DNA of 64,000 nt from a virus (IMGVR_UViG_3300009408_000001:64001-128000), one strand, 5' to 3'; positions 1 through 61,775 are shown, numbered from the stretch's first letter. The notes: generated from the sequence alone by a model not told the origin. Numbers and translations: made by a program.

Positions 1-823
1 CATCCCATACTGGTACCAGAGTTAGTGTTGCGTTAACAATAATGTCGGGTACACGTTCTTGCCAGTACTCTGGACTTCTGCCAGTTGTGGAGAGTAGGAA
101 ATCCCGAATGGCTACCATCTGGTTTTCACGTACAGCCGCTTGTCTGCCGTATTCCAACAGTACCCAGGTTAGGACCAGACTTTCCCCTGTGACGGTATCA
201 TACCAGTTAAGCTTAATCGTTGACTGTGCAGTGGGTGGAGATGAACCCTTAGCCACCGAAATGCTTTCTAACATCGTGGTGATGTCTTGCTTAGCCAATG
301 CGGTTTTAAGGTACGTCGCCCCCTGTGCCAGATCCATCACATTCGGAACGGGGGGTATTACCCGTAATTCATGTTCATCGTATTCTGTTTGGAGTGCTTG
401 GTCTGACAACCACACCCGGATATCGACACTGATGCCTTCACTTTCCATCGTCCACGAAATCCAGGACGGTAAGGTTGTGTCAGCCGTGGTTACGGCAGGA
501 CCGGTGTTTGGGTTGTAAAGATCCGCATTGCGACTGCCGAGTTGCGCCGTAAAAGAAATGTCGGGCTGCGCAGTTGTAACAAAGTCGTTCAGGATTCGAA
601 GGGTAGCGGCTTCTATCGCTGCTGTAACAGGCTCATCGTATTTCTCGGTCTTTGATGAAAACACAACCAAAGATACTGCTGGATACCTGGGGTCAGCCAA
701 ATTCGTCTTTGTTGTACTGTAAGTACGACTGTGGATGGAAAGTTCTCCGAGGGGGGATGTGTTTCCTACCTCACCGTCCAGTAAATCGTTGATTATGCAA
801 AACGCCTTTAATGTATAACTCAC
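1..823 (-). CDS. phiKZ-like virion structural protein (3' end runs off the window)
   Basis: Not in the ORF track. GTG at 821-823 with AGGAG 7 nt upstream; open frame read manually to base 1 (MSYTLKAFCIINDLLDGEVGNTSPLGELS...). The N-terminus resembles conserved phiKZ-like virion proteins. Confidence 0.7.
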   Translation of the reverse strand, partial: MSYTLKAFCIINDLLDGEVGNTSPLGELSIHSRTYSTTKTNLADPRYPAVSLVVFSSKTEKYDEPVTAAIEAATLRILNDFVTTAQPDISFTAQLGSRNADLYNPNTGPAVTTADTTLPSWISWTMESEGISVDIRVWLSDQALQTEYDEHELRVIPPVPNVMDLAQGATYLKTALAKQDITTMLESISVAKGSSPPTAQSTIKLNWYDTVTGESLVLTWVLLEYGRQAAVRENQMVAIRDFLLSTTGRSPEYWQERVPDIIVNATLTLVPVWD

Positions 824-886
824 AGCCGTGGCTCCTATTTATGTATAGAATCTTCTTAATTTTAGCATTCGCTGCTAATCTTCTGT

Positions 887-899
887 ACCCAACATTACC
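887..899 (+). promoter_or_regulatory. Putative phage early-type promoter core (ACCCAACATTACC)
   Basis: Shares the CATTACC core with the cassette promoters; intergenic, just upstream of the RBS of 921..1337. Confidence 0.4.
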
Positions 900-920
900 C
901 TTTATTATGGAGATAGTATC

Positions 921-1337
921 ATGTCCAATCATCCTGGCATCAATTATGTAATGAACCGAGAGTTCACAGTGAGCCTTGGTTCATTACTCGGGTTCCTACT
1001 CGTTGCGATCATTGGCTTCATTACTGTCTCCATGGTATTTGGTACTGAACGTGCAGAAGCAACCTCAAAGACACAGATTGAATTACCCACAGTACCCACC
1101 GCTAAAGTGACCGCTGACTTATCCTTAATGGCCATCTTTAACGACTATAACGATCAACTCACCACGATCCACCACGGAGATACACACAATGAAGTTCCTG
1201 CTAACTCTATTGGCAGTGCTGCTAGTAACAGCATGTACGGTTACCCTACCGCCAGTTGCACCGACACCCCCGGTCAAACCACAGCGAGTGGAAGTCACGG
1301 TACTGGTGAAGAACCCAATCCCAGTTGTACAACCTAA
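921..1337 (+). CDS. N-terminally anchored membrane protein (possible i-spanin)
   Basis: GGAG RBS; one hydrophobic helix LGSLLGFLLVAIIGFITVSMVFG; 3' end overlaps a lipoprotein gene. Confidence 0.6.
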   Translation: MSNHPGINYVMNREFTVSLGSLLGFLLVAIIGFITVSMVFGTERAEATSKTQIELPTVPTAKVTADLSLMAIFNDYNDQLTTIHHGDTHNEVPANSIGSAASNSMYGYPTASCTDTPGQTTASGSHGTGEEPNPSCTT

Positions 1338-1611
1338 ACCCAGAGTTCGCACGGTATACAAAGAAAGGGTAGTGTATCGCGATAAGAAAGCTAAAGGGTG
1401 TACATTGTCCTCGGATGACCTGCGGATCATTGGCAGGATCAAGAGCTGGCAGAAGGGTAAGCCAGTCGGACAAACTCAAAAATTAGGGTGGGTGAATAAC
1501 CCACGGGACGCCATCATCTACTTCAAAAGACGAGCACTGTACTCAGAGAAGTTCGTTACAACCTACATGCGGGATGTCGAGGAGGCTATCAAACGTGTTA
1601 AGTGCCATTGA
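1189..1611 (+). CDS. Lipoprotein (possible o-spanin)
   Basis: Signal peptide MKFLLTLLAVLLVTA|C with lipobox VTAC, then a Pro-rich linker; starts inside 921..1337 in another frame. Confidence 0.7.
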   Translation: MKFLLTLLAVLLVTACTVTLPPVAPTPPVKPQRVEVTVLVKNPIPVVQPKPRVRTVYKERVVYRDKKAKGCTLSSDDLRIIGRIKSWQKGKPVGQTQKLGWVNNPRDAIIYFKRRALYSEKFVTTYMRDVEEAIKRVKCH

Positions 1612-2989: not shown

Positions 2990-2998
2990 CTACCCGTG

Positions 2999-3024
2999 CC
3001 CACCGAGCCATTAGGTTCGGTGGG
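2999..3024. terminator. Hairpin between convergent genes
   Basis: CCCACCGAGCC-ATTA-GGTTCGGTGGG inverted repeat. Confidence 0.6.
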
Positions 3025-3038
3025 TAGGTATGCTGTAC

Positions 3039-5359: not shown

Positions 5360-5360
5360 A

Positions 5361-7564: not shown

Positions 7565-7569
7565 GGGAC

Positions 7570-7618: not shown

Positions 7619-7996
7619 TTATGGACTCATCTTCTTCTCAACAAACTCTTCAAAGGTTACTGAGGATACTTCCGTGGATAACTCCCCCTCTATTGGTTCG
7701 AAGGCATCCAGTGCTGACGCGTCAATTCGTTCACCCTCTACTACGTTTGGACCCGGTGGTACCATCCCTGGAGAAGTGGCCTTGGATACCATAAGTAACA
7801 GCGCACCTGCCAGTTCTGTTTTAGCCTTTACACTGTCTCCGTCTACGTTTATTCGGAGTTGTGCGGTAGAGGTTTGTGACATGCTTGACAGGAGCATAAT
7901 CCGTGTTCTCGGGTCAAGGTCATCAGCAGCAAGCGCCAGTCGTTCTCTTTGAACGTAATCTAACATTGTTTGCGGGTCTGTTTTTACCGTACTCAT
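7619..7996 (-). CDS. Hypothetical protein
   Basis: GGAGAACACCA-ATG RBS; protein-like composition. Confidence 0.75.
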   Translation of the reverse strand: MSTVKTDPQTMLDYVQRERLALAADDLDPRTRIMLLSSMSQTSTAQLRINVDGDSVKAKTELAGALLLMVSKATSPGMVPPGPNVVEGERIDASALDAFEPIEGELSTEVSSVTFEEFVEKKMSP

Positions 7997-8026
7997 TGGT
8001 GTTCTCCAGATATAAGGGACCAGGAT

Positions 8027-8545
8027 ATGTTTGGTTTTTTACTGCGTATGGTCCATGTAATCAAGGTAGATTACTACACGTTTACACTACATACGTATCC
8101 AAAGAATATATACTCCCCCGGGCGTACCCGGGTGGAGATGCAATTATGCAAGCTCATCCTAAGTCGTCGAAACGATACGGTTCACCCGTTACACGGGGAA
8201 TACATCACCTGTACAGCCATAAGTCTACCCGGGTATAGGAAGGCACTGGCTAACAACCTAATCGCCTTACAGGGTAATCGTACGAGACTTGGAACAGATG
8301 CCACCTACATGTCCACCTTTCCAGTAAAGCGAAGCCTGGGAGAGTGGTTATGGCCAACACGACGGGACAACAACTACACCTTATCCACCGTAATACACGA
8401 CATACATGCTAGCCTGACGGTCATCATGTCCACGATAGAAAAGGAGGAGGAAGCTCTCACTAGAAAACAACTGGAAACATGGTGTACCGACCTCACTGTA
8501 ATTAACAGTGAGTTAACCCGGGTACTGATTACAGTACCCAATTAA
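8027..8545 (+). CDS. Hypothetical protein
   Basis: ATG at 8027 after AGGA, in frame with the track ORF; divergent from 7619..7996. Confidence 0.65.
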   Translation: MFGFLLRMVHVIKVDYYTFTLHTYPKNIYSPGRTRVEMQLCKLILSRRNDTVHPLHGEYITCTAISLPGYRKALANNLIALQGNRTRLGTDATYMSTFPVKRSLGEWLWPTRRDNNYTLSTVIHDIHASLTVIMSTIEKEEEALTRKQLETWCTDLTVINSELTRVLITVPN

Positions 8546-10736: not shown

Positions 10737-12785
10737 CTACCTGTGCACCGATTTGAACAGTCCAGCGATCGTTCTTCCTGGACCGATACCTGAGAACTGC
10801 GCCGCATGGTGAGTTGGTGACATCCATGCTTCAAAACTGGCCAACTGCTGTCGCCATGCTAACTTTAACTTGGCGGTTCCATAGTACTGGTCGTACAGTG
10901 ACAACCCACTCAGACACGCAAGGTATCGTGTGAAAGCGGTTTCTTCATCGAATGCACTCATGGATAAGAAATCCAATGGTCCCGAAAGGGGAGACAGCGG
11001 CATGTGTGCGAGCTTATCTAGGTTCAGTACTGAAATCGTGATATCGATTCGTGCAGGTATGTTATCTACGGTCCACCCAATTCCACCACCGCCTGAAGTC
11101 ACCGTTACGGAATCAATGATTCCCTTCTCAATGTTGTTCTTACCGTGGTGAAACATACGACATAACAAAGGACTCGTATAAGAATGTTTACCCGTGCTCA
11201 GTGGCATAACTCCCGCAAGAATTGCAGCAAGGGGCACCAGGCGAGTTAACATAACCGAGGTTTTATTCCCATATGGACCGCCTAGTGAGATGGTAAATGA
11301 AGAAGTGGGTAACTGGGTAGTAGACGCTTCCCAGAACTCTGGCATATCTACCATTGCGCTTCCGCCTAAGCCAGCTAAGTTTCCCATGCCAATCGAAGCA
11401 AGGCCACCTTCCATCAAGTTTTTTACAGCGGTGAATGCACTTTCCGCCATGCTAGCTATGGCACCATCCCCAACGTTACCATGTGCGAAGTCAAAGAACT
11501 TACTCCTTGCACCAGAACTGGTGGAGTTAAATGATCCTTCTAGGTCGGACTTTCTAGTGGAGTTAGTCACAGACATCTGTGTGGTGGGTATGTGATCTAC
11601 GTAGAACCCTACCCACATGGAACCATCTTCTAGTTCGGCGAGTAGACTACCGTCTCTGGCTTCCTGATGTACGTCTCCTACCTCTTTGGTAGCGTACGAG
11701 ATTGCGGCGTCCTTATCCCCTGCAATTACGTCTGCGTCCAATTCTGCTCTGGTTAATCCCACACCACGCCCAACACTGCTGTTCTTATAGTAGTTGTTCA
11801 TGTACTTTAAGTAGGTAGGTTGGTTTGCATCCCCCGCATTGGCTTGCATGTAGGTTGCGATACCCGGGGGGTCCATGCGTTCCCGAATGTACTTACGAAT
11901 CGCATCATCATAGGATAACTTATCGTTGTATACCGATGCGTCTGCAATTGACTTAAGTGTTCGGTGGTGGTGATTAGCCAGTCGTTGTGCTCTAGTGGAG
12001 ACCGCGAAGATATCAATCCCCCCATTCTTGTTACGAAAGATGTCTGGCATGAGTCGATTCATGACGGAGACGTCGTCCGTGGACATAGCGTCTCCATATG
12101 AAGCGGGTAAACCTGCAGCAGAAGCCGCTTCCTTAACGGTCTCGATCGACTTGTTTAAGAAGTTAAGCGGAACAGGGGGTTCTACGATTCCCAGGTTAAC
12201 CCCAAGCTTGTTTACAATTGTGGACACAGAGCTCCAGTACAGTGCCATGGTTTGTTTTATGTAGTAGAACGATGAGTTGGCACTGCCCAGTAACATTCCG
12301 ACTACGTTGGTAACCATGTTATTAAGGCCAGCAACCGCCTGCAATGGCAACGTAAGTAAGAACCCTATCGCATACCCTGCTTCAAAGAAGAACCCTCTAG
12401 AGTCACCTGTGTTAGCCAGGCGGGCCATCTGTGTATCATAGTACTTTGAAAAGAATCCAGTTAGACTGTTGTGTTTAGGCAGTCCAAACTGGAAGTACAC
12501 GATTTCAGCGTTGTCGTCAATCACACTGCTGTAATATTCCCCCTGTCCGTCAGACATACCAACCGGTCCGAATCCGGGCATACGTGGGTCAGCAAAGGGC
12601 GTAAACTGTGGTTTGGGGTTCAGCCCAAGGTTACCACCCAGTGATGAATCTGTGTATTTCAAATCTGCACTGGTGTAGTTCCGGTTGGCTTTAGCTCTAC
12701 CCCCCATGACTTTACCAGGGATGAGGTAAACTTGCTGTATCCAATCGTGGTCAGATCGTATCTTTAGAAAATCTGCTGCGGCCAT
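10737..12785 (-). CDS. Virion tail/baseplate protein (phiKZ gp182-like)
   Basis: 682 aa directly downstream of the gp181-like gene; YTDSSLGGNLGLNPKPQFTPFADP and G..YYS..IDDN motifs. Confidence 0.75.
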   Translation of the reverse strand: MAAADFLKIRSDHDWIQQVYLIPGKVMGGRAKANRNYTSADLKYTDSSLGGNLGLNPKPQFTPFADPRMPGFGPVGMSDGQGEYYSSVIDDNAEIVYFQFGLPKHNSLTGFFSKYYDTQMARLANTGDSRGFFFEAGYAIGFLLTLPLQAVAGLNNMVTNVVGMLLGSANSSFYYIKQTMALYWSSVSTIVNKLGVNLGIVEPPVPLNFLNKSIETVKEAASAAGLPASYGDAMSTDDVSVMNRLMPDIFRNKNGGIDIFAVSTRAQRLANHHHRTLKSIADASVYNDKLSYDDAIRKYIRERMDPPGIATYMQANAGDANQPTYLKYMNNYYKNSSVGRGVGLTRAELDADVIAGDKDAAISYATKEVGDVHQEARDGSLLAELEDGSMWVGFYVDHIPTTQMSVTNSTRKSDLEGSFNSTSSGARSKFFDFAHGNVGDGAIASMAESAFTAVKNLMEGGLASIGMGNLAGLGGSAMVDMPEFWEASTTQLPTSSFTISLGGPYGNKTSVMLTRLVPLAAILAGVMPLSTGKHSYTSPLLCRMFHHGKNNIEKGIIDSVTVTSGGGGIGWTVDNIPARIDITISVLNLDKLAHMPLSPLSGPLDFLSMSAFDEETAFTRYLACLSGLSLYDQYYGTAKLKLAWRQQLASFEAWMSPTHHAAQFSGIGPGRTIAGLFKSVHR

Positions 12786-12852: not shown

Positions 12853-15800
12853 CTATGACTTAAAGTCCACAACCGATTTAAACACCGTAGTGTCTGTGTT
12901 CGGCAGCGCTTTCTTTATGCTGTCATTGCTGTTACCAGAGGAATCACCCTTCACAACGATCGTAGTATCTTTACTGGCAATAGTCTCCAGTTTTTCGATC
13001 ATACGCTCTTGGTTGTTGATCATAGTATTTCTCTGTTCTTCTGCGGCGATACTGAGTGCGATCTGCTGTTTCATCGCACCAACCGTATCATCCCGAGTTC
13101 TAGACGCTAGGTCCATGTGGCGAAGTGCCAACCCATCGGATGCACTTAAGCGTTTCCGGGGAGTTAAACTGACTTCAGCTTCTGGACGACGACGAGTTAC
13201 AGGTACCGGTGTAAATTTAACTGACTCTTGTCTACGGGATGCACGGTACGCCATTTCCTTAGCGTCTTGTTCATCCCGCATCGTTTGCAGTTTACTGGCA
13301 ACCGTAATTCCTTCAGGGGGCTTGGACACAGGCTCCTTAACCGTTACCCTTTCTTCTGGAGGAAGTTGCTTAGCATTTACCCTAGCCACCATGGCGTCAT
13401 GTTCTTCCGATGCAAGCTCATTCCGCGTGGCAGGTGGGGTTGGTTGGTCATCACTAATGAACGTCATGGCCTCCCTAGCAGACAGTTTTGAAAACTGTCT
13501 CATTGTTAGCGGGTGTTTCCCGGACCGTTTCCGGATAGAGTTAACCGCTGTCAATGCCCGTTCTAACCTACTACCCTCTACATTCAGATTCCTTTCTAAA
13601 TCCTTAGAGCGATCGTAAGGTAGGGTACTTGTCCTAGGTTTCTCCGTAGGTGGGGGAGTAACCGAGGAACCGTACTTATTCGCCATCATGGTGTTACCCA
13701 TTGATTTTTTCTCTTCCATAAGCGCACCCACTTCAGTGGCGGACATCGATGCAACCTGCATCATTGACATACCGGGTTTCCCCAGATCAGCCAGGGTGTT
13801 TGACACCATGGTGTACTTACGCTGCATCACACCAATCTCAAGTTGAGACAACCCTTCGGTTGCCTTCTCAATCTCGGCAGCGGTAACTTGGTGCCTAAGT
13901 GAAGTAGGTCGCGTCACAGACGGTGTAACCCGTGTCGTAGGTTGCACAGGAGTAACCCCCGGCATTGTAGGTGCCGTGCCGTACTTATTCGCCATCATGG
14001 TGTTACCTAGGGCCTTTTTCTCTGCAACAAGTGCAGACACGGCCTCCGGTTTCATATCCATGACTTCTTGCATCGTAATCCCAGGTCGACCCAGGTCGGA
14101 TAACATGGCAGATACCATGGTGTACTTACGCTGCATCACGCCAATCTCAACCGGTGTCTTTCCTTCTGACATGGTTTCAATTTCGTCTTTTGTAACGACA
14201 TGTCGTTTTGCAACCACCTTTTCAGGAACAGGAGCAGTAGGAGAACTTCCTTTATCCGATGCAGGGCTGGCAGAATCAGTCAACTTCTGTAGCTTAGCAC
14301 TGGGTGGGGATTGCTTTGCAGCAAGGGTGTCTACCCCTTCGAGGCCATCCGACTGCCCCTCTACCTTACTCCCCTTGGCGATTTCCTCAGCGGTCTTTAT
14401 CTCATTAACCGCTGCTGTTTTGTCCACGGATCTAAAACCGGAAACCGGATCAGTAGTGGGCCCCCACTGTTTAAGGTTCTTCCGCCATTCAAAATGGAGG
14501 TGGTTACCGTCACTAAGTCCTGTGTTTCCAACGGTACCGAGCAACTGGCCCTGGAGGACGGTATCCCCTATATGTAACCCACGTGCGCGTGAGTTCATGT
14601 GGGCATACCGGGTAGATGTCCCATCTGCATGCCTCAGGTAAACGACATTGCCATAACTAGGTGAATAATGCGAACGCATGACCCTACCATCCATAGCAGC
14701 GACGACGGGTGTTCCCTTGGGTGCGGCTATATCTATTCCCTTGTGGAAAGACCGTTCCCCCCCAATGGGGTGTTTACGCCAACCGTACGGAGAACTGATT
14801 CTTCCTTCAGCCGGTATCATCATCTTAGACTTGCGTCCTAGGTCATCCCCACCACCGTATATTACAGAGGCACCAACCAATGCACCCGCAACCAAACCGA
14901 TGGCCTTTTTCTTTCCCTTCTTTTCAGTAGGGGGATTAGGGTCCCGTTCGTTTTCCTTCCTGGCTTTCTCTTCGGCATCGGTTCGTTTCTTATCGTTCCT
15001 AGACTTGTTCTTATCCTCACCAGGTAGTCCTGGTACGAAATCGAAGTCATCTAATTCAGAGTCACTCATAAGGGTTTCTAGCATGCGTCTCGTGTAGTCA
15101 AGTACAATGTCTCGCATGCTGTAAACGGGCTTACCATTGAACGGTGTTGCAAGTACCGCGTATGGGTTGAATCCCCGTTTGATGTCCTTCTCAGTTATCT
15201 GAACCCGATTGATGAACATCGCCTGGTCCTTATCGTCCATCTCATCATCGATGTCAAGTATGTCTACCCCATCGTCTAAACGATACGCTGCTTGGATATG
15301 AGTGTAGAATACGGGAATGAACCGTTTCCGGAACCACGTGTTCCACTCACGACCATGTGCGCGATCGTCCAGAAGCCTATTGAACGCTTCATGGTGCTCT
15401 TCATAGAAGTACGCCGGTTCTTCGTTCAGGGTAGGGGACCCGTTCTTATCCAGATCAATCTCTGACCTTACCTGGTCTTCGAGGGCTCGGATTGCGTAGA
15501 TGAAGTCTTCGTCCTTGAGACTCACCCCGTATTGCAAGAACCTAAGCCCTTCGACAGGTTGTACGTCTGAACCATAGGTTAAATGTTTCGTCAGTTTGTA
15601 CGCGCCCCAGGCGGCCACGCCCACAACCGCAAGGACACCCAGTCCCAACATCAGCGTCCCTACACCCAGTGCCGCAGCAGCCGTGGCTGCTGTGGTGGCA
15701 ACGCTAGTGGCAACGCTAGTGGCTGCCACGGTTGCTGCTACCCTTGCTACCGTTTGCATAACTTTACCTCCAACAGCCTTAGCTGTATCGATCACAACAT

Positions 15801-40296: not shown

Positions 40297-40561
40297 TCTT
40301 GAAGTGGGTGCGGATGTGGGTGAGGATGAATATGAAGAGGACGAGCTCCGACAGGGTCTAATAGACGATGCGGAGGAATGGAACAACGGGTGACCGTGTG
40401 TTACCCACTCGGGTGGCCACCTTTGCCGGAATAACGGCACCATTTCGCCACATGACTCGACGCTAACTACTGGGTGGATGAAGAGGGCGAAGTACAATGT
40501 GACGCAGGTGAAGGTCCCTTCAGCCCGGGGATTCTAAACCTGTAGTAAGTAACATAAGCTG

Positions 40562-46473: not shown

Positions 46474-48980
46474 TAGACTTACCCAGTTTAATTTATGACA
46501 CAGCTAAGTCGGAGCTGTGGACTAACCCACATAACGACCGACAACTAACCTACAAGCCAACCAGACTCTGTACGATACATGGGTCGGTTGGTTCTGTAAC
46601 CACTCACATGGCAACCCAACGACTTCCAGATGTAACCACCCGTTGGGTGTTATATGACTTTGGTAACCTGCCACTGGAAGGAACAGGAATACAGAGCCTT
46701 AATACCACGTGGTCTACTGGTGAATCAATAATGGTAGACAACGCCATGTTACTCAGTGTGTACTGCAATGGGGTTACGTTTGCGCCTGGTCAGTACCAGA
46801 TGCGACGTACCAGCAGAAAACACGTGTTACTGGCACTGGAGGCCGTACCCAACAGTAGCGCACTGTCGACTCTGGAACCGTTGTTCTTCCGAACGTATTC
46901 CAACGTATGGCACTCTACCTCGGCTAACCCGTATCCTGTACCCGTGTTACCCAGAAGTGTAACCTGCATGGCACCAGCAGATACGACTACGGTTTTATTA
47001 CACCAGGATGAACCGGTGGTGGGTAACCGCATGTTGTTCCACAATGGATATTACGTTTCTGATATTACCAGTAACGACATATCGAACGGGGATACCGTGT
47101 ACCAACTGGATGACTTACCGGGTAACGGATACGTCGACATTCCGGTGAATGACCTGAGTCATTATGTTTCGGACAACGATCGACGTGGCAAGTATGTCGT
47201 GATGCACCCTACCAATGGCACACCCCTGGCAATGGAACCAATGGATGAACTGGAGTTATTCGTTTGTTGTACCACGAAAAGTATAAATGGTGAGAGAGAC
47301 GTTGTTAAAGGTGTCTACTTCGGGAGAACTAAAGTAGGTGACATGCGTATGTTAACCCACCGAGATTACTCCATCGATGTTAGAAAAGTAACAGGATTAA
47401 CAGTGTCCCACCGCACTATCTTTGGAAACCGGGATGTTTTCTTTCGGGTATTTACTCGCAAACACGAAAACGGTAACCTGACAATTCTAGATGGGTCTTA
47501 CCTACTCGACCTCTTTAGACTAGAGGACAAAGATCGGGTTCGGATGATGACTGGAACCGGTGGGTTTAAAGGGTGGAGATGTACTGAACTGGAAAAGGCC
47601 AACTCCATACTGTGGCAGAGTCACGCATGGTGGGAATTAACCCAACCAGATAGTTTGAAGAATACTCTGGCATTGCCAGCGGTAGCCGAGCTTGTAGCTA
47701 CGGGTACCGTGAACGGTAACACACATACCCTTCCCTTCTCCATGCGACTTGGTGGTAAAGCAATTGGTTATGACGTAAACGGTGTTCTCATATCCATAGA
47801 AACCATTCCCGTTGATTCGGATGGTACTGTGATGGCGCTTCCAGTGGGAGTGGTCAATGTGGAGTACATCCCTGGAGAATTCATCACCGATGGTAGGATG
47901 ATTGATGAGCCCATGTACGGTGGTGAGAAAGCCAACTGGTTTAATGAGGTGTACTACTACAATGAAACGGAAGGGGGACAATGGCTACAGGGTCTAATAG
48001 ATAGGGACTACCACATTGATGCTGGTACCGGTGAGGTGTTGTGGGATGAGAGGCTTGCAACCGCAGGGTGGACAAGGCGCACGTGTAAGTACAGTTCTCA
48101 TCGTCGCATACGCACTGCTCCAAACACACTACATTACAAGTACTCCATGTGGGAAACCAACGAACCCGTCATTGCGGTAGGATTGTTTAAGACCGAGGTC
48201 TACATCAATGGCCACCAGCTAGTGGAAGGGATTGAATACACTGTAATTGGGCATTCTTTCCGGGTGAACAGTGCAGAGTACTACAATGGAGACGATCCTG
48301 AAGTTGTCATTGATGTATTCCATTATGGGGTAAGTGACCGTGGGGAAGAGAGAAAGATATCTGGGTTCATCCAACATCGGAAGGCGGTACCCATTACTGG
48401 GGAAGGACTGTTCATTAAAGGACGGAACCGGGTTTGCTTTAACTCTGGTTGTCTGGTAAGTGCGGATAAACTTGGCATACTCGAATCTCCAGGAACGGAG
48501 ACAGACCCAGCATACAGAGAAGGCTCATTGTGGGCAGCGGAAACAAGACCTATGTTACACAGTCGTTGGGGATTGCGTGCGTTTGGGGAGGAAGACGGGT
48601 ACTCTGAAATAATCAGTCGATCTGTGTTCAGACATATTCCAAAGCCGGATTTATCTGGACTGCTTACCATTCCCAAGCAACACCTCTTGTTCTCTCCGTT
48701 CATCAAGCGGGTAGTATGGTTGCTTATAAATAAGACACTGGATGTTTCCGTATTGGGAACCAGTCGATCATCAGTACAGTCCGCAATGGTACCCTATCTA
48801 GACCTACTAGCAGAAGACCCTACCTCACGATTAAGTTCGGATGGTCAACTTGGGATATCCCCCCTGCCGGAGTCTACCGTAACAACCATCTCAGGCAGTG
48901 AGATGGCCTTTCTTAGAGAAGTCGTTGCACTGTACTACAACGGTAACGTAACATTAAACCTCCACCTTCGGGTGGTGTAA
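46470..48980 (+). CDS. Virion/baseplate protein (phiKZ gp27-like position)
   Basis: 836 aa; RMLTHRDYSI, VYINGHQLVEGIEY and HLLFSPFI motifs. Confidence 0.75.
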   Translation: MIDLPSLIYDTAKSELWTNPHNDRQLTYKPTRLCTIHGSVGSVTTHMATQRLPDVTTRWVLYDFGNLPLEGTGIQSLNTTWSTGESIMVDNAMLLSVYCNGVTFAPGQYQMRRTSRKHVLLALEAVPNSSALSTLEPLFFRTYSNVWHSTSANPYPVPVLPRSVTCMAPADTTTVLLHQDEPVVGNRMLFHNGYYVSDITSNDISNGDTVYQLDDLPGNGYVDIPVNDLSHYVSDNDRRGKYVVMHPTNGTPLAMEPMDELELFVCCTTKSINGERDVVKGVYFGRTKVGDMRMLTHRDYSIDVRKVTGLTVSHRTIFGNRDVFFRVFTRKHENGNLTILDGSYLLDLFRLEDKDRVRMMTGTGGFKGWRCTELEKANSILWQSHAWWELTQPDSLKNTLALPAVAELVATGTVNGNTHTLPFSMRLGGKAIGYDVNGVLISIETIPVDSDGTVMALPVGVVNVEYIPGEFITDGRMIDEPMYGGEKANWFNEVYYYNETEGGQWLQGLIDRDYHIDAGTGEVLWDERLATAGWTRRTCKYSSHRRIRTAPNTLHYKYSMWETNEPVIAVGLFKTEVYINGHQLVEGIEYTVIGHSFRVNSAEYYNGDDPEVVIDVFHYGVSDRGEERKISGFIQHRKAVPITGEGLFIKGRNRVCFNSGCLVSADKLGILESPGTETDPAYREGSLWAAETRPMLHSRWGLRAFGEEDGYSEIISRSVFRHIPKPDLSGLLTIPKQHLLFSPFIKRVVWLLINKTLDVSVLGTSRSSVQSAMVPYLDLLAEDPTSRLSSDGQLGISPLPESTVTTISGSEMAFLREVVALYYNGNVTLNLHLRVV

Positions 48981-48990: not shown

Positions 48991-50658
48991 ATGGGTGGAG
49001 TAGTAGTACGAGACGTCCGACTTAGGGGACGCGTTTTACATCTGGATGAAATCTGGATGGGTATAGAGGGCACGATTAACGATGGTCTGATCGTTGCTAA
49101 CATTGATGATGTGATCATGGGACCCGGTGGCATTTGGAGGGTCGCGTTGGTTGACGAGGTAACGTCCATTCCGGTGTTGGTGTCCATGATAGATGAATTG
49201 AGTGGCAAGAGCAGTACGCTCAGTTCGGATGTATTGGACGATGGGTTACGCCACTACCCTGCAGCCATCACCAGTCGTTTGTTTTTATCCACGGCGACCG
49301 AACCCTACACGATAACGTTGGATGCTACATTTCAGGTACGTGGGGCAGACGCGTCTCACCTCCGTCTCTTTTATGGCACGGATACCAGTTCAAAGGGAAA
49401 GGCAATAAGTCACAGTTTGGATACAAACGGCAAGATCCTGAGTGACCTTGTTGACTTACAGCCACTCGATCCGAATAACCTAGCCATCAAACGCCCTGGT
49501 GCAATGTACACGACCTTTAACATGCAAGACGGTGATACCTGTACCGCCGTATCTTACTCTGCGGATGGGAGAATCCATGATGAGCGGAGACTCGTGGTTA
49601 TCAACGCAGGTAGCATTGCTCCATTTGACACCAATGGGGTTTACCTAGAAGACATTAGTATTGAAAGTCCACTATTGTCTGCGACAGACCCACTGGTCAT
49701 CGAGAACCCGGTTAACCATACCTTTGACACGGCACTGATTACCGCGAAGTTACATTACAGTAACGGGGATGTGATACATCACCCTATAGACGGTAACAAA
49801 GCCATTCTGTTTGGCCTTTCTAACTTTGACAGTGGACGCGTAGGTAAGCCTGTGGAGTTAATGATAAGTTACTACCCGGGGCCAAGTGAACCAGCCATTA
49901 ACTTGAAAGGTGTGCTTCGTCCTAACTTATCGAAGACGTATACCCTGTCAAACGTAGCTACTGAAGGGGATTACTCCCTTAAGGTATACGCCATTCCATA
50001 TCGGGTTGCAGACAAGTGGGCAGTACGATGGATCCTAACAGATGCAGCCTATGGGGTAGCATTAGACGTCAGTGCTCATACCACGGTACTCAACGACACA
50101 AACCGGGCATTTAACTTCGATAACGATGGAGTATTGCAACGGATGTTAGTGACAGTTAACGTGGGTGAGGCAAACAGCATCAAATACCCAGGACACATTC
50201 ACACCCAGAAATTGGATATTTCGTTCCCCAGTTTCAGCACCATCGATCACAGTAGCTGGGTCATGGATTACGGAATTGACGGGAACACCGTGTTTGGTAA
50301 GGACCTGTACGCTACGGTAAATCAAACGGGTGAAAAGGGATACAAGGTCGATTGTAACCTACCTGATATGAACACCTGGTTGGACACCTTGTACCGTGGT
50401 GTTGATCCAGTGTACGATCCTGCATCCTATGGGACAGCACCGGTACCGACACACGTGCGTGTGGAACACGGGGGTCCAGATGGAAGAAAGGTCATCGGGG
50501 AGTTCCCTGTAGATGAGTGGGACCTTGTGCATTACATGGGGTCCTCTGGTACATGGGAAGACACAATGTCGATGAGTCTGGTATGGCTTGTTAAGACAGT
50601 GGATACTACCCTGACCCTGGCCATGTCTCCTCTTCAAATAAAATACCTTCTGGTATAA
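48991..50658 (+). CDS. Virion/baseplate protein (phiKZ gp26-like position)
   Basis: 555 aa upstream of terminase; VLHLDEIW and ITAKLHYSNG motifs. Confidence 0.75.
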   Translation: MGGVVVRDVRLRGRVLHLDEIWMGIEGTINDGLIVANIDDVIMGPGGIWRVALVDEVTSIPVLVSMIDELSGKSSTLSSDVLDDGLRHYPAAITSRLFLSTATEPYTITLDATFQVRGADASHLRLFYGTDTSSKGKAISHSLDTNGKILSDLVDLQPLDPNNLAIKRPGAMYTTFNMQDGDTCTAVSYSADGRIHDERRLVVINAGSIAPFDTNGVYLEDISIESPLLSATDPLVIENPVNHTFDTALITAKLHYSNGDVIHHPIDGNKAILFGLSNFDSGRVGKPVELMISYYPGPSEPAINLKGVLRPNLSKTYTLSNVATEGDYSLKVYAIPYRVADKWAVRWILTDAAYGVALDVSAHTTVLNDTNRAFNFDNDGVLQRMLVTVNVGEANSIKYPGHIHTQKLDISFPSFSTIDHSSWVMDYGIDGNTVFGKDLYATVNQTGEKGYKVDCNLPDMNTWLDTLYRGVDPVYDPASYGTAPVPTHVRVEHGGPDGRKVIGEFPVDEWDLVHYMGSSGTWEDTMSMSLVWLVKTVDTTLTLAMSPLQIKYLLV

Positions 50659-52849: not shown

Positions 52850-52851
52850 TG

Positions 52852-55785: not shown

Positions 55786-55860
55786 TGCTTCTTCTTTAAC
55801 TGCAACGTACATGTACATATGTGGGTTCCCTATGGTAAGTATAGGATCCGACGTATTTCA

Positions 55861-55920
55861 AAACAATATTACCTTACTGATAACACGTCCGTGTTATTTA
55901 TTCTAATTGGAGCTTTACTT
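55861..55920 (+). promoter_or_regulatory. Regulatory cassette copy B (no terminator)
   Basis: AAACAATATTACCTTACTG-ATAACACGTCCGTGTTAT-TTATTCTAATTGGAG. Confidence 0.85.
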
Positions 55921-56742
55921 ATGAACAAACCTGTCTTTTTCAATCGTAATGTTCCCCTTGATGAATTCAAGGATCTCTTCGAAACAAAACTGGTGCCGGT
56001 TGAACTGGGTCGACATTACCTGCGTCCACCACAGGCAACCATGACCTCCTCGTGGGTAGCCGGTACTGACGTAATTCGCCATGTCACTGTACCCGGGTAT
56101 GACCACGATTGGGCGATGGTGTACGGTAGCATTGTAACCGAGACAGTACACATTGTTCCCCTGATCCCTCACATGGACGGTGTTACCCAGAGTATCCTGT
56201 TACTATTGGTAGACCACCGAAATTGCACACTGGACCTTGTAGAGGTAGTTTACACCGAGGAGCCGATTCACACCCTAACCGGGGAGGACATCATAGCACG
56301 TGTATCTGCGTACCTTCAAGCCGAACGTGAGAATGTGCTTTTATTGGAACGCGTTGAAGCAGACGATGGGTTTACGAACTGGCCCGACCCCGATGTGTTC
56401 CAAATCGAAGGCGGTACCCTGAGCGGACTTGCACACGCCATTGAAAGGGGGGGTAACCCCATGCTAGCGAAACATGTCCGGGAAACCCTGGTCGGGATGC
56501 AGGGTGATGGGAATACCGACCCTACAACTATGACATGGGATGCCACGGAGTATTTACGGATGTGGGGTAGTCCTGCGTCCACGGTGGAAACGGGAGAACC
56601 CGAGGGTGAATCCCAGAGACATAGTTTGGACGATGAAGTGGAACCTAATAGCGTAACCTGGGCACTGGACGATGCCACTGTGTCGGCCATTGCAGCATTG
56701 CTGATTGAAGCCCACCTACCGGAGGACCAGGGCGATGACTGA
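55921..56742 (+). CDS. Hypothetical early protein
   Basis: ATG at 55921 after the cassette RBS. Confidence 0.75.
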   Translation: MNKPVFFNRNVPLDEFKDLFETKLVPVELGRHYLRPPQATMTSSWVAGTDVIRHVTVPGYDHDWAMVYGSIVTETVHIVPLIPHMDGVTQSILLLLVDHRNCTLDLVEVVYTEEPIHTLTGEDIIARVSAYLQAERENVLLLERVEADDGFTNWPDPDVFQIEGGTLSGLAHAIERGGNPMLAKHVRETLVGMQGDGNTDPTTMTWDATEYLRMWGSPASTVETGEPEGESQRHSLDDEVEPNSVTWALDDATVSAIAALLIEAHLPEDQGDD

Positions 56743-57010
56743 GAAGTCGGGTAATAATGCGAGTCGTACCGAAAAGGGATTCGACATCGTAGTTGATGCA
56801 TTGTCTGACGTACCAGAGGTGTATGTACGCCATATGAACGAACATCTTTTAACAGATAAAGGAAAGAGTAATATGAAAAACAACGCCTACGGGAGTGGGG
56901 TTCTCCCCCGGACATGGGGGTCTAATAGATCCGTGGCAACCAGACCGAACAACCATAAGCAAGGGGGACCCGTACAGTCTCGTGGAAAGGGCAAAAGTAA
57001 GCGGTACTAA
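56735..57010 (+). CDS. Small basic-tailed protein
   Basis: GGAGGA RBS; ends in SRGKGKSKRY*. Confidence 0.65.
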   Translation: MTEKSGNNASRTEKGFDIVVDALSDVPEVYVRHMNEHLLTDKGKSNMKNNAYGSGVLPRTWGSNRSVATRPNNHKQGGPVQSRGKGKSKRY

Positions 57011-57052
57011 CCCAAGGGGATTGACCTGTGTAAAAGCGATAAGTGTGAAACA

Positions 57053-57360
57053 GGTGGAGATGAACCCTTTAGAGACCCGTTCGATGAACGCATCAAACAC
57101 TATACCAGTGTATACGACATCGGGTCCTCACACCCCCTATACTTGAACAGCCCTTCTGAGTACACGGTTACACGTAAGACTTACCTTACTACCTTACCAG
57201 GTCCTCGTATGTCTAAAGGTAAAGGTAAGGTTAAACGGTACTGATATACCTTCACTTCTTTCACTTCTATTATTAATAAAGGAGGTACCTATAGTGTAGA
57301 CGTCATACGCACCTATCCTGTAAAAGGGATAGGGGTGGAGATGAACCCTTTAGAGACCCG
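57053..57360 (+). repeat. 27-bp direct repeat GGTGGAGATGAACCCTTTAGAGACCCG
   Basis: Copies at 57053-57079 and 57334-57360, each preceded by a TGTAAAAG(C/G)GATA block. Confidence 0.95.
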
Positions 57361-57391
57361 AAGGGTCTAATAGATAAGTGAACGAAGTGAA
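57251..57391. ncRNA. Candidate structured non-coding element
   Basis: 57251-57272 pairs with 57368-57391 (21 bp, one mismatch, one 2-nt bulge); internal hairpins at 57312-57333 and 57355-57367; no ORF. Confidence 0.4.
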
Positions 57392-57674
57392 CTCCTTACT
57401 ACCTAACCATAACAGTTACTAGAGTAGTTAAGGTAATGACAATAGAGGACTAAAGGGTAGTACTGACTATACCCTATACATGAAGGTAACTATACACTAC
57501 CTTTAATGTAATGGTTACTACTTGACATACGGGATTAGACCTGATTAAGGATAAGGGATAGATAGACTTAACATAGATACATGATAGTAATACATGTAAG
57601 CTATGAGGTAATGAGATACACTGAAGTGATAAGGGTAAGTAATGATGCTTACTCTAAACTAGGGGAATGCGAAA

Positions 57675-58154
57675 ATGAGTAATACAGTGGTTAAAGGGGT
57701 TGTACCACTTCTTAGCTTACATGACCCCATTCGTCCACCTGTAGAGGACTGTGACCTATACACCGGACCTAACGGAGACCAGATCATCGTAATGCCCGAT
57801 GGCAACCACCTGCTTATTCGGCATAGCGAACACTATACGCTGCCTTACGTCATTGACTTACCCCTTACCTTGGATATCCACGCTAGGTCGGATAAGTGGA
57901 GACGGGGGTGGGAAGACACTCACTTACAAGTTAGAGAACAGGTGTTGACTATAACGACATGGGGTTCCCATAGTAGTCGTCGAGTTTTAGTTAGGAACCG
58001 CCCCATCTTGGGAATGGTTCCTCTTTCTGGGAAACGCTTACCTAAACAACAAGTCTGTATGTTAAAGGATCGTTCCCTTATCCTTGTTAACCCAGAGACA
58101 GCGGAAATAACTGAGCTGTATACACAGAAACCTACCGGGCGTAAAGAGCAATGA
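57675..58154 (+). CDS. Hypothetical protein
   Basis: AGGGG RBS; coupled to the next ORF. Confidence 0.7.
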   Translation: MSNTVVKGVVPLLSLHDPIRPPVEDCDLYTGPNGDQIIVMPDGNHLLIRHSEHYTLPYVIDLPLTLDIHARSDKWRRGWEDTHLQVREQVLTITTWGSHSSRRVLVRNRPILGMVPLSGKRLPKQQVCMLKDRSLILVNPETAEITELYTQKPTGRKEQ

Positions 58155-58348
58155 ATGCTGAAGGGGTACACATGTACCCCCTTGTGGGAGAACGCAGCTG
58201 TGAGGGCATTCTAGAGGGTACAGTACGTATAGAAAGGGACCTGCCACAGTACAACCAATACGATTTACTGGATAATGGTTCGAACGTAGGTGTCAACGTA
58301 TCCCGATATACGAACCAAAGTCAGTTACATATCCCAGTAACAGCATAA
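58151..58348 (+). CDS. Small hypothetical protein
   Basis: ATGA overlap; ends at a terminator. Confidence 0.6.
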   Translation: MNAEGVHMYPLVGERSCEGILEGTVRIERDLPQYNQYDLLDNGSNVGVNVSRYTNQSQLHIPVTA

Positions 58349-58352
58349 GCAG

Positions 58353-58440
58353 GAGGCCCCGTTAAGGGCCTTTTCTTTTTTCTTTGCCCTCACGCATATT
58401 TCAAAACCATATTACCTTACTGATAACACATCCGTGTTAT
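58353..58440 (+). promoter_or_regulatory. Regulatory cassette copy C (terminator with inverted loop, promoter, palindrome)
   Basis: GAGGCCCCGTTAAGGGCC-T tract; AAACCATATTACC; ATAACACATCCGTGTTAT at 58423-58440. Confidence 0.85.
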
Positions 58441-58549
58441 TGATTCTAATTGGATATCGAACACGTGTTCGATGATAGAGTGCACGGACTACTGAAGGAA
58501 GACCAGTCCATGGTATCTATTTACATCCAAGCCACCTGAGGATAAGTAA

Positions 58550-58726
58550 TTGTTCCTGTACATCCCTAAAAAGAAACCAGTTCCTAAACGTGGAGATATC
58601 ATCTCCACCCGGGGTAATGTAACCTACGTTCGTTTTAAGGTAGAACCCCGCCGGTTCATTAAGGGGTCTAGTGAAAAATGCGTCAGGGTTAACCCTGACA
58701 AGGACGATACCGATAAACCAACATAA
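58550..58726 (+). CDS. Possible small basic protein (TTG start)
   Basis: GAGGA upstream; 58-aa ORF ending just before a terminator. Confidence 0.35.
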   Translation: MFLYIPKKKPVPKRGDIISTRGNVTYVRFKVEPRRFIKGSSEKCVRVNPDKDDTDKPT

Positions 58727-58730
58727 ATAG

Positions 58731-58820
58731 GAGGCCCTTCACGGGGCCTCTTTTTTATTTGCGTTCCAGCCATTATTAAGAACCACATTGTTATTTAATT
58801 CATTTGGAGATTTAAAGATG
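58731..58820 (+). repeat. Regulatory cassette copy D with 22-bp internal deletion
   Basis: Matches copy A on both sides but lacks ACCTTACTGATAACACGTCCGT. Confidence 0.85.
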
Positions 58821-59480
58821 AATAACCGCTTAGAAACAAAAGTCTGTGTAGGCCCCTATCTAATATCCGTATCAAAGGGGACAGTATGCATAACTGCTAT
58901 GGATTCTGTACCCTCCGAAATGGGGAAACCCAAGTTTAAAGACGCAGTTGGAATTATCCCGGGTGCCGGAAGTCGTGTTTACATTGTGTGTTCCTCCGGA
59001 CGCAAGGAACTGGCCATTCGGGAATACAATGTGTATGGGAATGAGTCCGTCGATGTAGAACTAGCCATGGCGACTTGCACTCGTCTAGGTATGGAAGAAG
59101 CCGGACCTTACTCGTGTACCCGGGTACACGATGGGATTTTGTACCACAGTAGGGACATGTCCGAATCCCAGACAATGGTACCGGTACCCATTGGGGTCGG
59201 TTTAAAGGTGCGTGGTTTGATTGGTAACCTCTCCACCCCTACGGTGGTCATATTGGAAGATGGTACCGTTCTGTCGCTGACTGCCAATGGAAAACTAACG
59301 TTCTTATTTACAACGGTTAATCCGTACGAAGATGAACTTGCAGTACACCATTACAGTAAGCCCACGAACGATGGAGATCCTGGACAAATAGTACAGTGGT
59401 GGAAATCTTACCATGAACTAACGACACTGGCTTCAAAGTACTACGACAACATAGTCCCTTCCAAGAAAAACATAACCTAG
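58818..59480 (+). CDS. Hypothetical beta-rich protein
   Basis: ATG after the cassette RBS. Confidence 0.75.
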   Translation: MNNRLETKVCVGPYLISVSKGTVCITAMDSVPSEMGKPKFKDAVGIIPGAGSRVYIVCSSGRKELAIREYNVYGNESVDVELAMATCTRLGMEEAGPYSCTRVHDGILYHSRDMSESQTMVPVPIGVGLKVRGLIGNLSTPTVVILEDGTVLSLTANGKLTFLFTTVNPYEDELAVHHYSKPTNDGDPGQIVQWWKSYHELTTLASKYYDNIVPSKKNIT

Positions 59481-59489
59481 GAGAACAAC

Positions 59490-60470
59490 ATGACAAAATG
59501 TGAAGTATATGCAAATCACAAATTCGAAGGATACCTTCGGTTCAGTCAAGATTACATTGTCCTTCTTACCCCCTGTATGGATGATACCATCCGCTGGCAT
59601 AATGTCGTGCCCCCAGAAGGAGTAGATGTAGAGGTACACATTAAGGTAACCCAGGAAATGTTCGCGGCAGAAGGTGTCAAAGCCCTTGATAGACTGTTTA
59701 AACGAGTAACCCCTGAAGAACGGGAAGCCGTGCTTAACGCACACGGTTACGTAGACCTATATGGCGCATCGTACATGGTACACAACGGAACCCTATATTA
59801 CTTCATGGGCGATAACGTGTACACTGTCTTTGAGTTTTATCCCGTTACGGGGATTGTCCGTGATGGTTTGAGTGTGGTTACCACACAATCTTTCAAAGGC
59901 AAACCAATCGGACAGTACCGGGTAAGTCCAGAAAAGCCAGTACCCTTGTTGTTGGACCAAGACAACGAGCTGAACATTCCTAACTTACTCCCTTCCACTA
60001 CCTCCCTCTTGGATTTACAGCAGTTGGTCCGAGTCCCAGTGAGGCGACATTCCGGTGTGGCCAACTGGAACGTGGACATCACAAGAGCAGATACTACAGC
60101 GCACGTGATGCGTATTCACCATGACGATACTGATCTCGAATTTGAAATCGTTAATGGTTCGGTAACGGTGACTTCAGGCGGAGGCATTAGTGAAATAAAG
60201 ATTCAAGATGACCGGGTTGCATATTCCCTATGTCCAGTTGGTAACGACCGGTTATTAATCACATGTACGGATAATACAGTTTGGGAAACCTCTGTCGAGG
60301 GTGAAGTGATGTTAGCAACCCACCCATATGTTCCAGGCTACACGGTAACTGCGGTGTGTACCTTGGACCCTACGGAAGAAGACCCAGCGTGTTTCCGGGT
60401 TGACGCCATTCGTGTGGTAGACGGTGTGTTGGTACGGGGGTTCAACCTGGGTTATCTATTCTTTAGTTAA
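59490..60470 (+). CDS. Hypothetical beta-rich protein
   Basis: AGGAG RBS; 326 aa. Confidence 0.8.
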   Translation: MTKCEVYANHKFEGYLRFSQDYIVLLTPCMDDTIRWHNVVPPEGVDVEVHIKVTQEMFAAEGVKALDRLFKRVTPEEREAVLNAHGYVDLYGASYMVHNGTLYYFMGDNVYTVFEFYPVTGIVRDGLSVVTTQSFKGKPIGQYRVSPEKPVPLLLDQDNELNIPNLLPSTTSLLDLQQLVRVPVRRHSGVANWNVDITRADTTAHVMRIHHDDTDLEFEIVNGSVTVTSGGGISEIKIQDDRVAYSLCPVGNDRLLITCTDNTVWETSVEGEVMLATHPYVPGYTVTAVCTLDPTEEDPACFRVDAIRVVDGVLVRGFNLGYLFFS

Positions 60471-60489
60471 CCGACGACGACATAAATAA

Positions 60490-60601
60490 GAGGCCCTTAA
60501 CGGGGCCTCTTTCTTTTTTACCGTTTCAGACATTATTAAGAACCACATTACCTTACTGATAACACCTCCGTGTTATTTAATCCATTAGGAGATTTACCAT
60601 G
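60490..60601 (+). repeat. Regulatory cassette copy E
   Basis: Near-identical to copy A over about 110 bp; palindrome ATAACACCTCCGTGTTAT at 60559-60576. Confidence 0.9.
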
Positions 60602-61246
60602 GCTACATTGCTAAAAGTATTCCACATTATCGACCCGTCTGACTCATCGCCAGTTGTCCAACAATTATCTTTCGCGGTGGCAGATACTGACTACACGGTA
60701 GGCGCAGAAGTAATAGGCCACTTGGTGTTAACTTCTTCCATTGCCCAAGTTCGTCCATGGGAAGCACTGGAATGCAGGGTGGTACTTACCACCCCAGATC
60801 TAGTCAAGCTCACACTAACCCGAAAGGAGAACCCGGAAGACGTACATGCTCTCCTCTTTTCGATCGTGCTGGACGCCCTAGAATCAGAACCATCACATAG
60901 TCCTGATCTACGTCGGTACGCAGAGAACCCACAGATGCCTCATCCGGTGTTCCCGTCAATTCCGCCTAGTCCGCACGGTAACCAACCACAACCATTCCAG
61001 AGTTACTGCCATCCCCAACCCCATGTTCATCCTTCTGACTCAGTCTATTCAGCAAAGGGTGCTTTAGATTCCGCAATGGGTGATTTAGATTCCGCAATGG
61101 GTGATTTAGATTCCTCAATGGTTGCTTTAGATAAGTTTATAAATGGACCGAAACAGGGTCCTGCCCCTTCAGGTAAAACCCCCGCCAAACCTACAGAGGA
61201 AGTGAGAGAAACTGACCCGGCTTCTAAGAAACCCACCACGCATTAA
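60599..61246 (+). CDS. Hypothetical protein with Pro/Gln/His-rich linker and heptad repeat
   Basis: AGGAG RBS in the cassette. Confidence 0.8.
   Translation: MATLLKVFHIIDPSDSSPVVQQLSFAVADTDYTVGAEVIGHLVLTSSIAQVRPWEALECRVVLTTPDLVKLTLTRKENPEDVHALLFSIVLDALESEPSHSPDLRRYAENPQMPHPVFPSIPPSPHGNQPQPFQSYCHPQPHVHPSDSVYSAKGALDSAMGDLDSAMGDLDSSMVALDKFINGPKQGPAPSGKTPAKPTEEVRETDPASKKPTTH
61064..61132 (+). repeat. 21-bp tandem repeat, about 3.3 copies (LDSAMGD)
   Basis: TTAGATTCCGCAATGGGTGAT twice, then a degenerate third copy. Confidence 0.9.
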
Positions 61247-61289
61247 TAAACAACACGGGTGCTAACCCACCCGTGTACTTGGAGAACAC

Positions 61290-61775
61290 GTGAATACCTT
61301 ACAAATGCTGCAAGTCGACACCATTCTTTTTTCTACTCTTCTCGCCAACGCCCTACCTGTTGGGCACAAAGATAGGCAAGAAGCATTCTTAACCGCCCGT
61401 GCAGTAGAGAGGTCTCTAAAGGGTTCATCTCCACCGGAGTTGATTGATGTACGTGTCCAAAACATCTCCACCCGCAGTAAACTGGACTCCACATTGGATA
61501 ACCTAGACACATTGCAATCGACCTTACCTAGGGTAGATAGGTTACGCGAATTAGTAACTCGGTTAAAGGGAGCTACTGTTACCCTGTCCCTAAAGGAAGA
61601 AACCGTAGTAAAACATGCGGTTGCCCTCATTGGGTCACATTCCATGGTACCTCGTACTTTGTTACAGCGAGGTTTGGTTAAGACCGAGGAAGCGTGGCGT
61701 CGGGTTTCCGAGAAGCAACGAGAGAAAGATACAGAAGTAACCCACCGTAACCACCTACCTACCTGGGCAAAGTAA
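61290..61775 (+). CDS. Hypothetical helical protein
   Basis: GGAGAACAC-GTG RBS. Confidence 0.7.
   Translation: MNTLQMLQVDTILFSTLLANALPVGHKDRQEAFLTARAVERSLKGSSPPELIDVRVQNISTRSKLDSTLDNLDTLQSTLPRVDRLRELVTRLKGATVTLSLKEETVVKHAVALIGSHSMVPRTLLQRGLVKTEEAWRRVSEKQREKDTEVTHRNHLPTWAK

Follow-up and report, generated by a model that had tools for sequence, protein, structure and literature searches.

A dispersed repeat family built on the 10-mer GGTGGAGATG was found in IMGVR_UViG_3300009408_000001, a virus record of 197,530 bp of which we studied bases 64001-128000 (hereafter the window, 64,000 nt; positions are those of the window unless marked as genome). The source is a distant, uncultured member of the nucleus-forming phiKZ-like jumbo phages. 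The 10-mer is a nucleic-acid-level signal, unexplained by a single peptide, codon usage or composition, and it belongs to a repeat family that is real, young and specific to one phage lineage. We tentatively propose that the repeats are putative sites of antisense RNA pairing in trans, the RNA being predicted to come from a structured locus within an early operon, and place this function slightly ahead of its rivals. The original prediction, made on the window, had seen in the same word a polar DNA site whose orientation switches near 58.6 kb; the nucleic-acid-level signal in that reading stands, whereas the polar, orientation-switching site does not.

A nucleic-acid-level word in excess of chance

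The 10-mer occurs 13 times genome-wide and nine times in the window, where all nine exact copies reported before were recovered at the same coordinates and on the same strands. Their excess over chance is likewise real, as dinucleotide shuffles yield 0.21 expected copies for the window, and Markov models of orders 1-5 yield 0.5-1.8 for the genome. We then ran the codon-preserving shuffles that had been suggested as a check, using 209 open reading frames (ORFs) picked by codon log-odds score, with 93.6% of the genome coding. These left 12 observed in-gene copies against 1.29 (synonymous-codon shuffle) or 0.73 (codon-order shuffle), with a shuffle maximum of 6. This codon-shuffle null proved about two-fold too low for shared words generally, both in the phage and in a relative; the 10-mer excess survives a two-fold correction of the null and therefore stands. 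The exact word is sharply favoured over its 30 single-mismatch neighbours (0-4 copies each versus 13), which indicates that all ten positions are constrained. It ranks among the commonest 10-mers of the genome, after terminator and early-promoter words.

Copies inside ORFs amount to 12/13, in line with the coding fraction, and promoters are not preferred. With respect to transcription, the 209-ORF set places six copies in sense orientation (0.8 expected under the codon null), six in antisense (0.5 expected) and one between genes. As had been noted from the window, the copies fall in different frames and strands, so that one peptide does not explain them; the readings found here are VEM, GWRC, GSSPP, IST and HLH.

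Anatomy of the repeat family

Inspection of the flanks revealed longer exact repeats that the 10-mer anchors on the left, all copies sharing this left edge. A 15-mer, GGTGGAGATGAACCC, is common to six copies (versus 0.005 expected), a 25-mer to three and a 27-mer to two (57053 and 57334). Measured against the latter pair, exact tracts extend over 27, 27, 25, 18, 17, 15, 12, 12, 11 and 10 nt, and beyond each tract end the resemblance to the 27-mer falls to chance level. Copies that are perfect and then unrelated, with one common edge, are thus unlike a degenerate protein-binding consensus; contiguous base pairing, or copying, would yield such tracts. The mapped copies are as follows.

57053-57079, + strand: full-length 27-nt copy GGTGGAGATGAACCCTTTAGAGACCCG, in the gene-less stretch 57011-57244, after the in-frame stop of ORF 56705-57010
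57334-57360, + strand: second full-length 27-nt copy, inside an ORF-free structured element
61411-61435, - strand: 25-nt copy, antisense to the early ORFan gene 61290-61775 (+)
61463-61473, - strand: 11-nt copy GGGTGGAGATG, 37 nt from the 25-mer, antisense to gene 61290-61775
233-250, + strand: 18-nt copy, antisense to a virion structural protein gene (phrog_3293, - strand)
genome 41936-41952, - strand: 17-nt copy, antisense to the gene at genome 40823-41968
genome 7852-7866, - strand: 15-nt copy, antisense to the gene at genome 7601-8203
58599-58610, - strand: 12-nt copy, matching the 57333 copy, with the 10-mer at 58600-58609
17745-17756, - strand: 12-nt copy, sense in a 3890-aa gene, reading KVEM
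8131-8140, + strand: bare 10-mer, sense in the accessory ORF 7970-8545, reading VEM
47572-47581, + strand: bare 10-mer, sense in the DUF7193 gene 46470-48980, reading GWRC

The five sense copies sit in five genes, and four of the five read VEM in one frame. Without the eight 'family' copies the count drops to five versus ~1.8 expected, which is only marginally more; of the five sense copies, which comprise four bare 10-mers and a 12-nt tract, some are probably background. Of the eight core family copies, seven map to accessory DNA that is specific to the lineage and has no homologue in a collinear relative.

A survey of 14-mers present at least three times, from which promoter/terminator cassettes, intragenic tandem repeats and paralogues were excluded, returned this as the sole dispersed in-gene family with at least four copies. 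The relative G001 has cassettes and tandem repeats of its own, and a comparable dispersed family is absent from it. Alignment of the flanks of the two 27-mers with MAFFT uncovered no convincing homology.

We also noticed a second short family, (A)GGGTCTAATAGA(T), with five copies (56918-56930, 57362-57376, 40353-40365 and 47989-48003, and genome 45133-45144 on the - strand), three of which lie within 420 nt of a GGTGGAGATG copy with matching strand. All of them are readable as G-L-I-D with identical rare CTA and ATA codons.

Long copies are antisense to the genes that hold them

All in-gene copies of at least 15 nt are antisense to their genes (4/4), as are 6/7 of those with a match of at least 11 nt; gene strand at the 15-mer sites was fixed by codon score, PHROG hit and JGI gene calls. 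An RNA from the 57.0-57.7 kb locus would accordingly be perfectly complementary to four phage mRNAs over 25, 18, 17 and 15 nt, namely those of the early ORFan, the virion structural protein and two accessory genes, and further matches of 12 and 11 nt lie in neighbouring early transcripts. Contiguous complementarity to the sense strand of the likely gene, as sought for an antisense RNA, was found at each of these lengths (25, 18, 17, 15, 12 and 11 nt). Predicted duplexes range from -51 to -25 kcal/mol, the -51 kcal/mol value belonging to the 61411-61435 copy with RNA from either 57053 or 57334.

The virion structural protein gene, whose phrog_3293 match has E=9e-68, offers a view of what the repeat does to a conserved protein. 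There the repeat encodes GSSPP, while homologues carry DGDPE, GTDPC, DKDPC, NGFPE or GNDPM, with no indel. The nucleotide word thus displaces residues kept by relatives, which disfavours a peptide cause; as read from the sequence, constraint at this copy acts on nucleotides and not on protein.

The full-length copies lie in an ORF-free early locus

Both 27-mers map to an island of early-type cassettes at 55.8-62 kb, made up of a conserved ATTAC-core promoter, leader, ribosome-binding site and GC-rich terminator (families D2-D8). The island (55818-61987) is placed between the phrog_2921 gene and the DUF7484/phuZ genes. Its genes are without homologues in a collinear 204-kb relative, which has different DNA of ~9.7 kb there, and by this comparison the 55.8-62 kb region is a hypervariable accessory island. 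Terminators on the + strand were located at 58351, 58729, 60488 and 61950, with none between the ~55848 promoter and 58351. The main features of the region are listed below.

55848-58380, + strand: early-type transcription unit, from the promoter cassette at ~55848-55917 to the terminator 58351-58380, holding both 27-mers
57246-57396, + strand: structured element of 151 nt, -51.4 kcal/mol, z=-4.0
58590-58609, both strands: head-to-head pair GTGGAGAT-ATC-ATCTCCAC(C), predicted 8-bp hairpin
61290-61775, + strand: early ORFan gene of 161 aa, with a codon score of 0.136 versus -0.033 per codon, a JGI call and terminator 61950

Within the first unit, 57011-57674 was left gene-free by the JGI gene caller and by codon scoring, and both 27-mers are on its transcribed strand. 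The 151-nt element displays a 22-bp closing stem and two hairpins either side of the repeat. Downstream, we recovered the head-to-head arrangement GTGGAGAT-ATC-ATCTCCAC described earlier at 58590-58608; the promoter-to-terminator cassette that surrounds it (58425-58760) has no called gene and z=-3.3, and contains the core as a hairpin. A third unit ends with the ORFan gene 61290-61775, which bears the 25-mer and the 11-mer antisense.

Pfam and PHROG searches with ten proteins of 55.9-63.4 kb detected no family except DUF7484, leaving the proteins as ORFans, and a protein-atlas look-up of a neighbouring ORFan returned noise-level scores only.

Upstream of and within the gene-free stretch, two successive in-frame stops (56981-57010 and 57215-57244) each follow a basic tail, GKGK(S/V)KRY, that is confined to these two places in the genome. 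The frame is open between both stops, with a gene-like codon score of 0.13 per codon, and the repeated tail could be a stop readthrough or a displaced 3' end.

Sites are clustered and not polar

Genome-wide, the strands of the 13 copies follow the order - + - + + - + + + - - - +. The orientation switch proposed near 58.6 kb finds no statistical backing, since the best one-switch fit in the window (8/9) is equalled by 25% of random assignments (P=0.25). Polarity elsewhere in the genome, on which the original prediction had staked itself beforehand, is absent as well: the best one-switch fit there is 9/13, and 78% of strand permutations equal it (P=0.78). Indeed, the first site past the window end, inside phuZ at genome 128457, is + again. 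With no polarity genome-wide, a non-significant local pattern and zero copies in relatives, the analogy with KOPS- or Ter-like polar sites fails, and the repeat family is no polar chromosome-organising site. What looks locally like a 'switch' is a pair of + copies in non-coding DNA of an early operon on the + strand, with three copies complementary to them further downstream, in + strand transcription units.

On the other hand, the clustering noted in the window is significant, with five sites within 4.4 kb (P=0.0016). Cluster spacings are 281, 1255, 11 (inverted), 2826 and 37 bp, with the majority of copies in ORFs; the set-up of an iteron-type origin, that is, at least three close direct repeats in a short non-coding stretch with an initiator gene adjoining, was not found. 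The cluster is situated 2-6.5 kb upstream of phuZ, which starts at 63465, and phuZ itself contains one copy.

The family is confined to one phage lineage

The gene content comprises phiKZ-type split RNA polymerase beta subunits, a tail sheath, a terminase, DUF7193, PhuZ tubulin and a number of phiKZ virion proteins; top protein matches in sequenced phages are just ~30-35% identical. CheckV put the completeness of the record at 71%. However, the 204-kb relative, whose assembly is self-closing, is collinear with the record end to end, with ~2.4 kb of the relative unmatched at the contig ends. This gene-by-gene comparison indicates a nearly complete 197.5-kb contig, with a circular permutation relative to the 204-kb genome, and because of that collinearity we treated genome-wide counts as essentially complete despite the CheckV value.

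Nearest relatives share 37-52% amino acid identity, the closest homologues of two different proteins being 49-52% identical. Five related IMG/VR records contain zero copies of the 10-mer, versus 0-1 for a reversed-word control, and two of these records count as complete because they are flagged with terminal repeats. Collinear relatives in which phuZ and the genes beside it are retained likewise lack the motif. Its absence from the five records means that phiKZ-like phages do not conserve it as an organising site. Wider searches were concordant: the 25-mer had no match in JGI metagenome contigs, an IMG/VR scan with the 15-mer gave, among the matches listed, only single chance-level ones, and a protein scan for close relatives retrieved nothing close. 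Two further assemblies, 99.98% identical, represent the same phage and retain every copy, which rules out an assembly artefact.

Comparison with two assemblies made independently, from JGI and Logan contigs and spanning 21.6 kb and 11.7 kb, revealed only five differences, all of them within 103 bp (48551-48653) of the DUF7193 gene, a pattern that resembles a short recombination or conversion patch. Elsewhere in the window, the 3890-aa ORF (12853-24525, - strand) has several families of internal repeats, with units of 306 nt (19406-20191) and of 75 nt (17113-18279), and matches the relative in part.

Candidate explanations tried and discarded

Several simpler origins of the word were considered and rejected. 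A peptide cause fails as frames differ, and only ORFs that are short or antisense, and have negative codon scores, leave the GGDEP reading open. Paralogy of the host genes was dismissed by BLASTP of g7601, the gene at genome 7601-8203, against the 61290 protein, the two sharing GSSPP only. The searches for tRNA and Rfam families returned none at gathering thresholds and, by E-value, only a sub-threshold sraL hit over a terminator. Nor does the word mimic a ribosome-binding site: the phage consensus is AGGAGA, the motif is not upstream of start codons, and GGTGGAG precedes only 2/209 predicted starts. A phiKZ-type early promoter cassette was set aside because families D2, D3 and D8 are distinct sequences and the flanks of the 10-mer have nothing in common.

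No common local RNA or DNA structure was found across all sites, and no further structured copy exists of the inverted arms that belong to the 57.3-kb element, contrary to a miniature inverted-repeat transposable element. Searches of the 197.5-kb record for HNH, HNH_3 and RVT_1 gave no match (other nuclease families were not searched), and therefore no HNH nuclease or reverse transcriptase was found to drive targeted copying. An excess of short patches as a trait special to this phage was likewise abandoned, the relative being nearly equal over shuffles.

Two other exact or near-exact matches involve genes of the same island. A 20-nt perfect inverted match joins 50271-50290, in the virion gene 48991-50658, to 60945-60964, in the ORFan gene 60599-61246; both genes are on the + strand, and their mRNAs are therefore complementary. 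The virion-gene segment encodes YGIDGNTVF (YGCDGMTVY in the relative), and a third copy of 17 nt is found in sense orientation in another gene (genome 186091-186107). Similarly, a 30-nt patch joins the virion-associated gene 10737-12785 (-) and the early ORFan gene 59490-60470 in the same coding sense.

Weighing the possible functions

We rank antisense pairing first because full-length copies are in non-coding segments of early transcripts, the second of them within a strongly folding element, because every long in-gene copy is antisense, and because matches are contiguous and edge-anchored, with the duplex energies predicted above. Mechanistically, the ORF-free early locus would act in trans through an antisense RNA or as a sponge, pairing with target transcripts and altering their stability or translation; a 25-bp duplex would be long enough for RNase III, and the sites may have arisen by short-patch copying and then been retained. 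That the 57.0-57.7 kb locus encodes a putative antisense RNA hub, its 25-27-nt repeat pairing with at least four mRNAs, early and late and including that of a virion protein, is possible but doubtful. A number of observations weigh against antisense pairing. Statistical backing for the antisense orientation is weak (4/4 or 6/7, P ~0.06), and the sense copies (four bare 10-mers, one of 12 nt) are also above the codon null (5-6 versus 0.8), an excess that fits a double-strand DNA signal better. Target sites lie 50-590 nt into genes, one of them at the 3' end and none near a ribosome-binding site, and perfect matches of 15-25 nt exceed what selection for pairing needs. Unpaired probability across the 25-mer spans 0.04 to 0.95 in the predicted ensemble, so that the repeat is partly open, and zero copies in the nearest relatives leave neither conservation nor covariation demonstrable.

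A somewhat unlikely alternative is binding of the repeats, as non-polar sites in double-stranded DNA, by a protein of the phage itself, be it a transcription, packaging or replication factor or a centromere-like function near phuZ; a transcription factor of this kind would act on the early accessory island, with the 25-27-bp copies as the strongest sites and the 10-mers as weaker ones. The joint enrichment of sense and antisense copies (6 and 6 versus 0.8 and 0.5) and the sharp core suit such a site, as do the significant clustering, the pairing of sites within the cluster (57053/57334, the 58590/58600 palindrome and 61426/61463) and its position 2-6.5 kb upstream of phuZ with one copy within that gene. 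However, the copies show no promoter or intergenic preference (12/13 in ORFs) and no graded similarity across a footprint, being perfect and then unrelated; the ten proteins encoded nearby yielded no DNA-binding family, collinear relatives retaining phuZ and its flanks lack the motif, and the tandem close spacing of iterons or tubC is not seen. We give a comparably low probability to the repeats being functionless footprints of short-patch copying, by gene conversion or template switching, plus a few codon-driven background 10-mers. This would account for the abrupt ends of the exact tracts and for the location of 7/8 core copies in lineage-specific accessory DNA, and it finds company in the 20-nt antisense copy of a conserved virion-gene segment within the early gene 60599-61246, in the patch common to 11086-11115 and 60155-60184 (27/30) and in the conversion-like packing of five inter-assembly differences in 103 bp. 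Yet a neutral process should produce random two-copy families, and not the 6-8 copies with one fixed left edge found here; the relative G001 has a similar short-word excess over shuffles (~1.9x versus ~2.5x here) and no such family, and the virion-gene patch replaced an equal length, in frame, inside a conserved protein.

Chance plus codon usage, with the word assembled from common codons (GTG GAG ATG, or GGT GGA GAT), is very unlikely. VEM does appear in the same frame in 4/5 sense copies, shuffle nulls underestimate shared words ~two-fold in both genomes, and outside the eight family copies the count is 5 versus ~1.8 expected; but 13 copies stand against 1.3-1.8 with no shuffle above 6, the 15-mer occurs six times versus 0.005, and the five related genomes have 0 copies with the reversed-word control at 0-1. 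This explanation is refuted for the whole family and is viable only for some sense-strand 10-mers. Least probable of all, and highly improbable in our judgement, is a KOPS-, Ter- or Chi-like polar site with a change of orientation at 58.6 kb, by which a translocase or a replication or packaging machine would be steered. One switch does fit 8/9 window copies and the head-to-head pair is located there, but 25% of random assignments fit equally, the genome reaches 9/13 (P=0.78) with a + site next, and relatives hold no copies. The genome is moreover collinear with a self-closing relative, so fixed ends are not indicated.

Significance and comparison with known systems

Nucleus-forming jumbo phages produce early and late transcripts by different polymerases and in different compartments. 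To our knowledge, control of gene expression once transcription has started has scarcely been explored in phiKZ-like phages, and our literature searches turned up phiKZ promoter and transcript maps and no dispersed sequence signal beyond promoters and terminators. If antisense pairing is true, it would be the first RNA-RNA regulatory network on record for a nucleus-forming jumbo phage, and a directly testable case in which a lytic jumbo phage uses an embedded antisense RNA to adjust its own early and virion genes. If the family is instead a protein-binding site, it would point to a novel DNA-binding factor near phuZ. In either case, significance is limited by the confinement of the family to one uncultured lineage without close relatives, and the earlier KOPS-like polarity reading is corrected.

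Among known systems, the island recalls the T4-type promoter-early stem-loop (PeSL) arrangement in that repeated promoter/terminator cassettes bound accessory genes; unlike there, the 10-27-mer family is not in the cassettes and lies inside ORFs and the non-coding locus. With KOPS, Chi and Ter it has in common a short over-represented word, mostly in genes and unexplained by the coded protein, and differs from them by the lack of strand polarity, a total of 13 copies, half of which extend to repeats of 15-27 nt, and absence from relatives. Prophage N15 has dispersed centromere sites, and parS, tubC of TubZRC and the N15 centromere are evoked by sites that are clustered, one of them palindromic, near a tubulin-like phuZ and partly in coding regions. 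In contrast to parS and tubC, the sites described here are asymmetric, form no tight tandem array and lack conservation in relatives with a phuZ of their own, and Pfam/PHROG searches of ten ORFan-rich neighbours detected no ParB- or TubR-like gene beside them.

Another comparison is with c4 RNA of phages P1 and P7, which is processed from the operon of its own target and pairs via short complementary blocks. Like c4, the locus studied here is a non-coding operon segment, structured by prediction, with blocks complementary to mRNAs of the same phage, including that of a neighbouring early unit. It differs in belonging to a lytic nucleus-forming phage and in that the RNA is a predicted one. The putative pairing blocks are perfect matches of 15-25 nt to at least four unrelated genes genome-wide, with targets off ribosome-binding sites.

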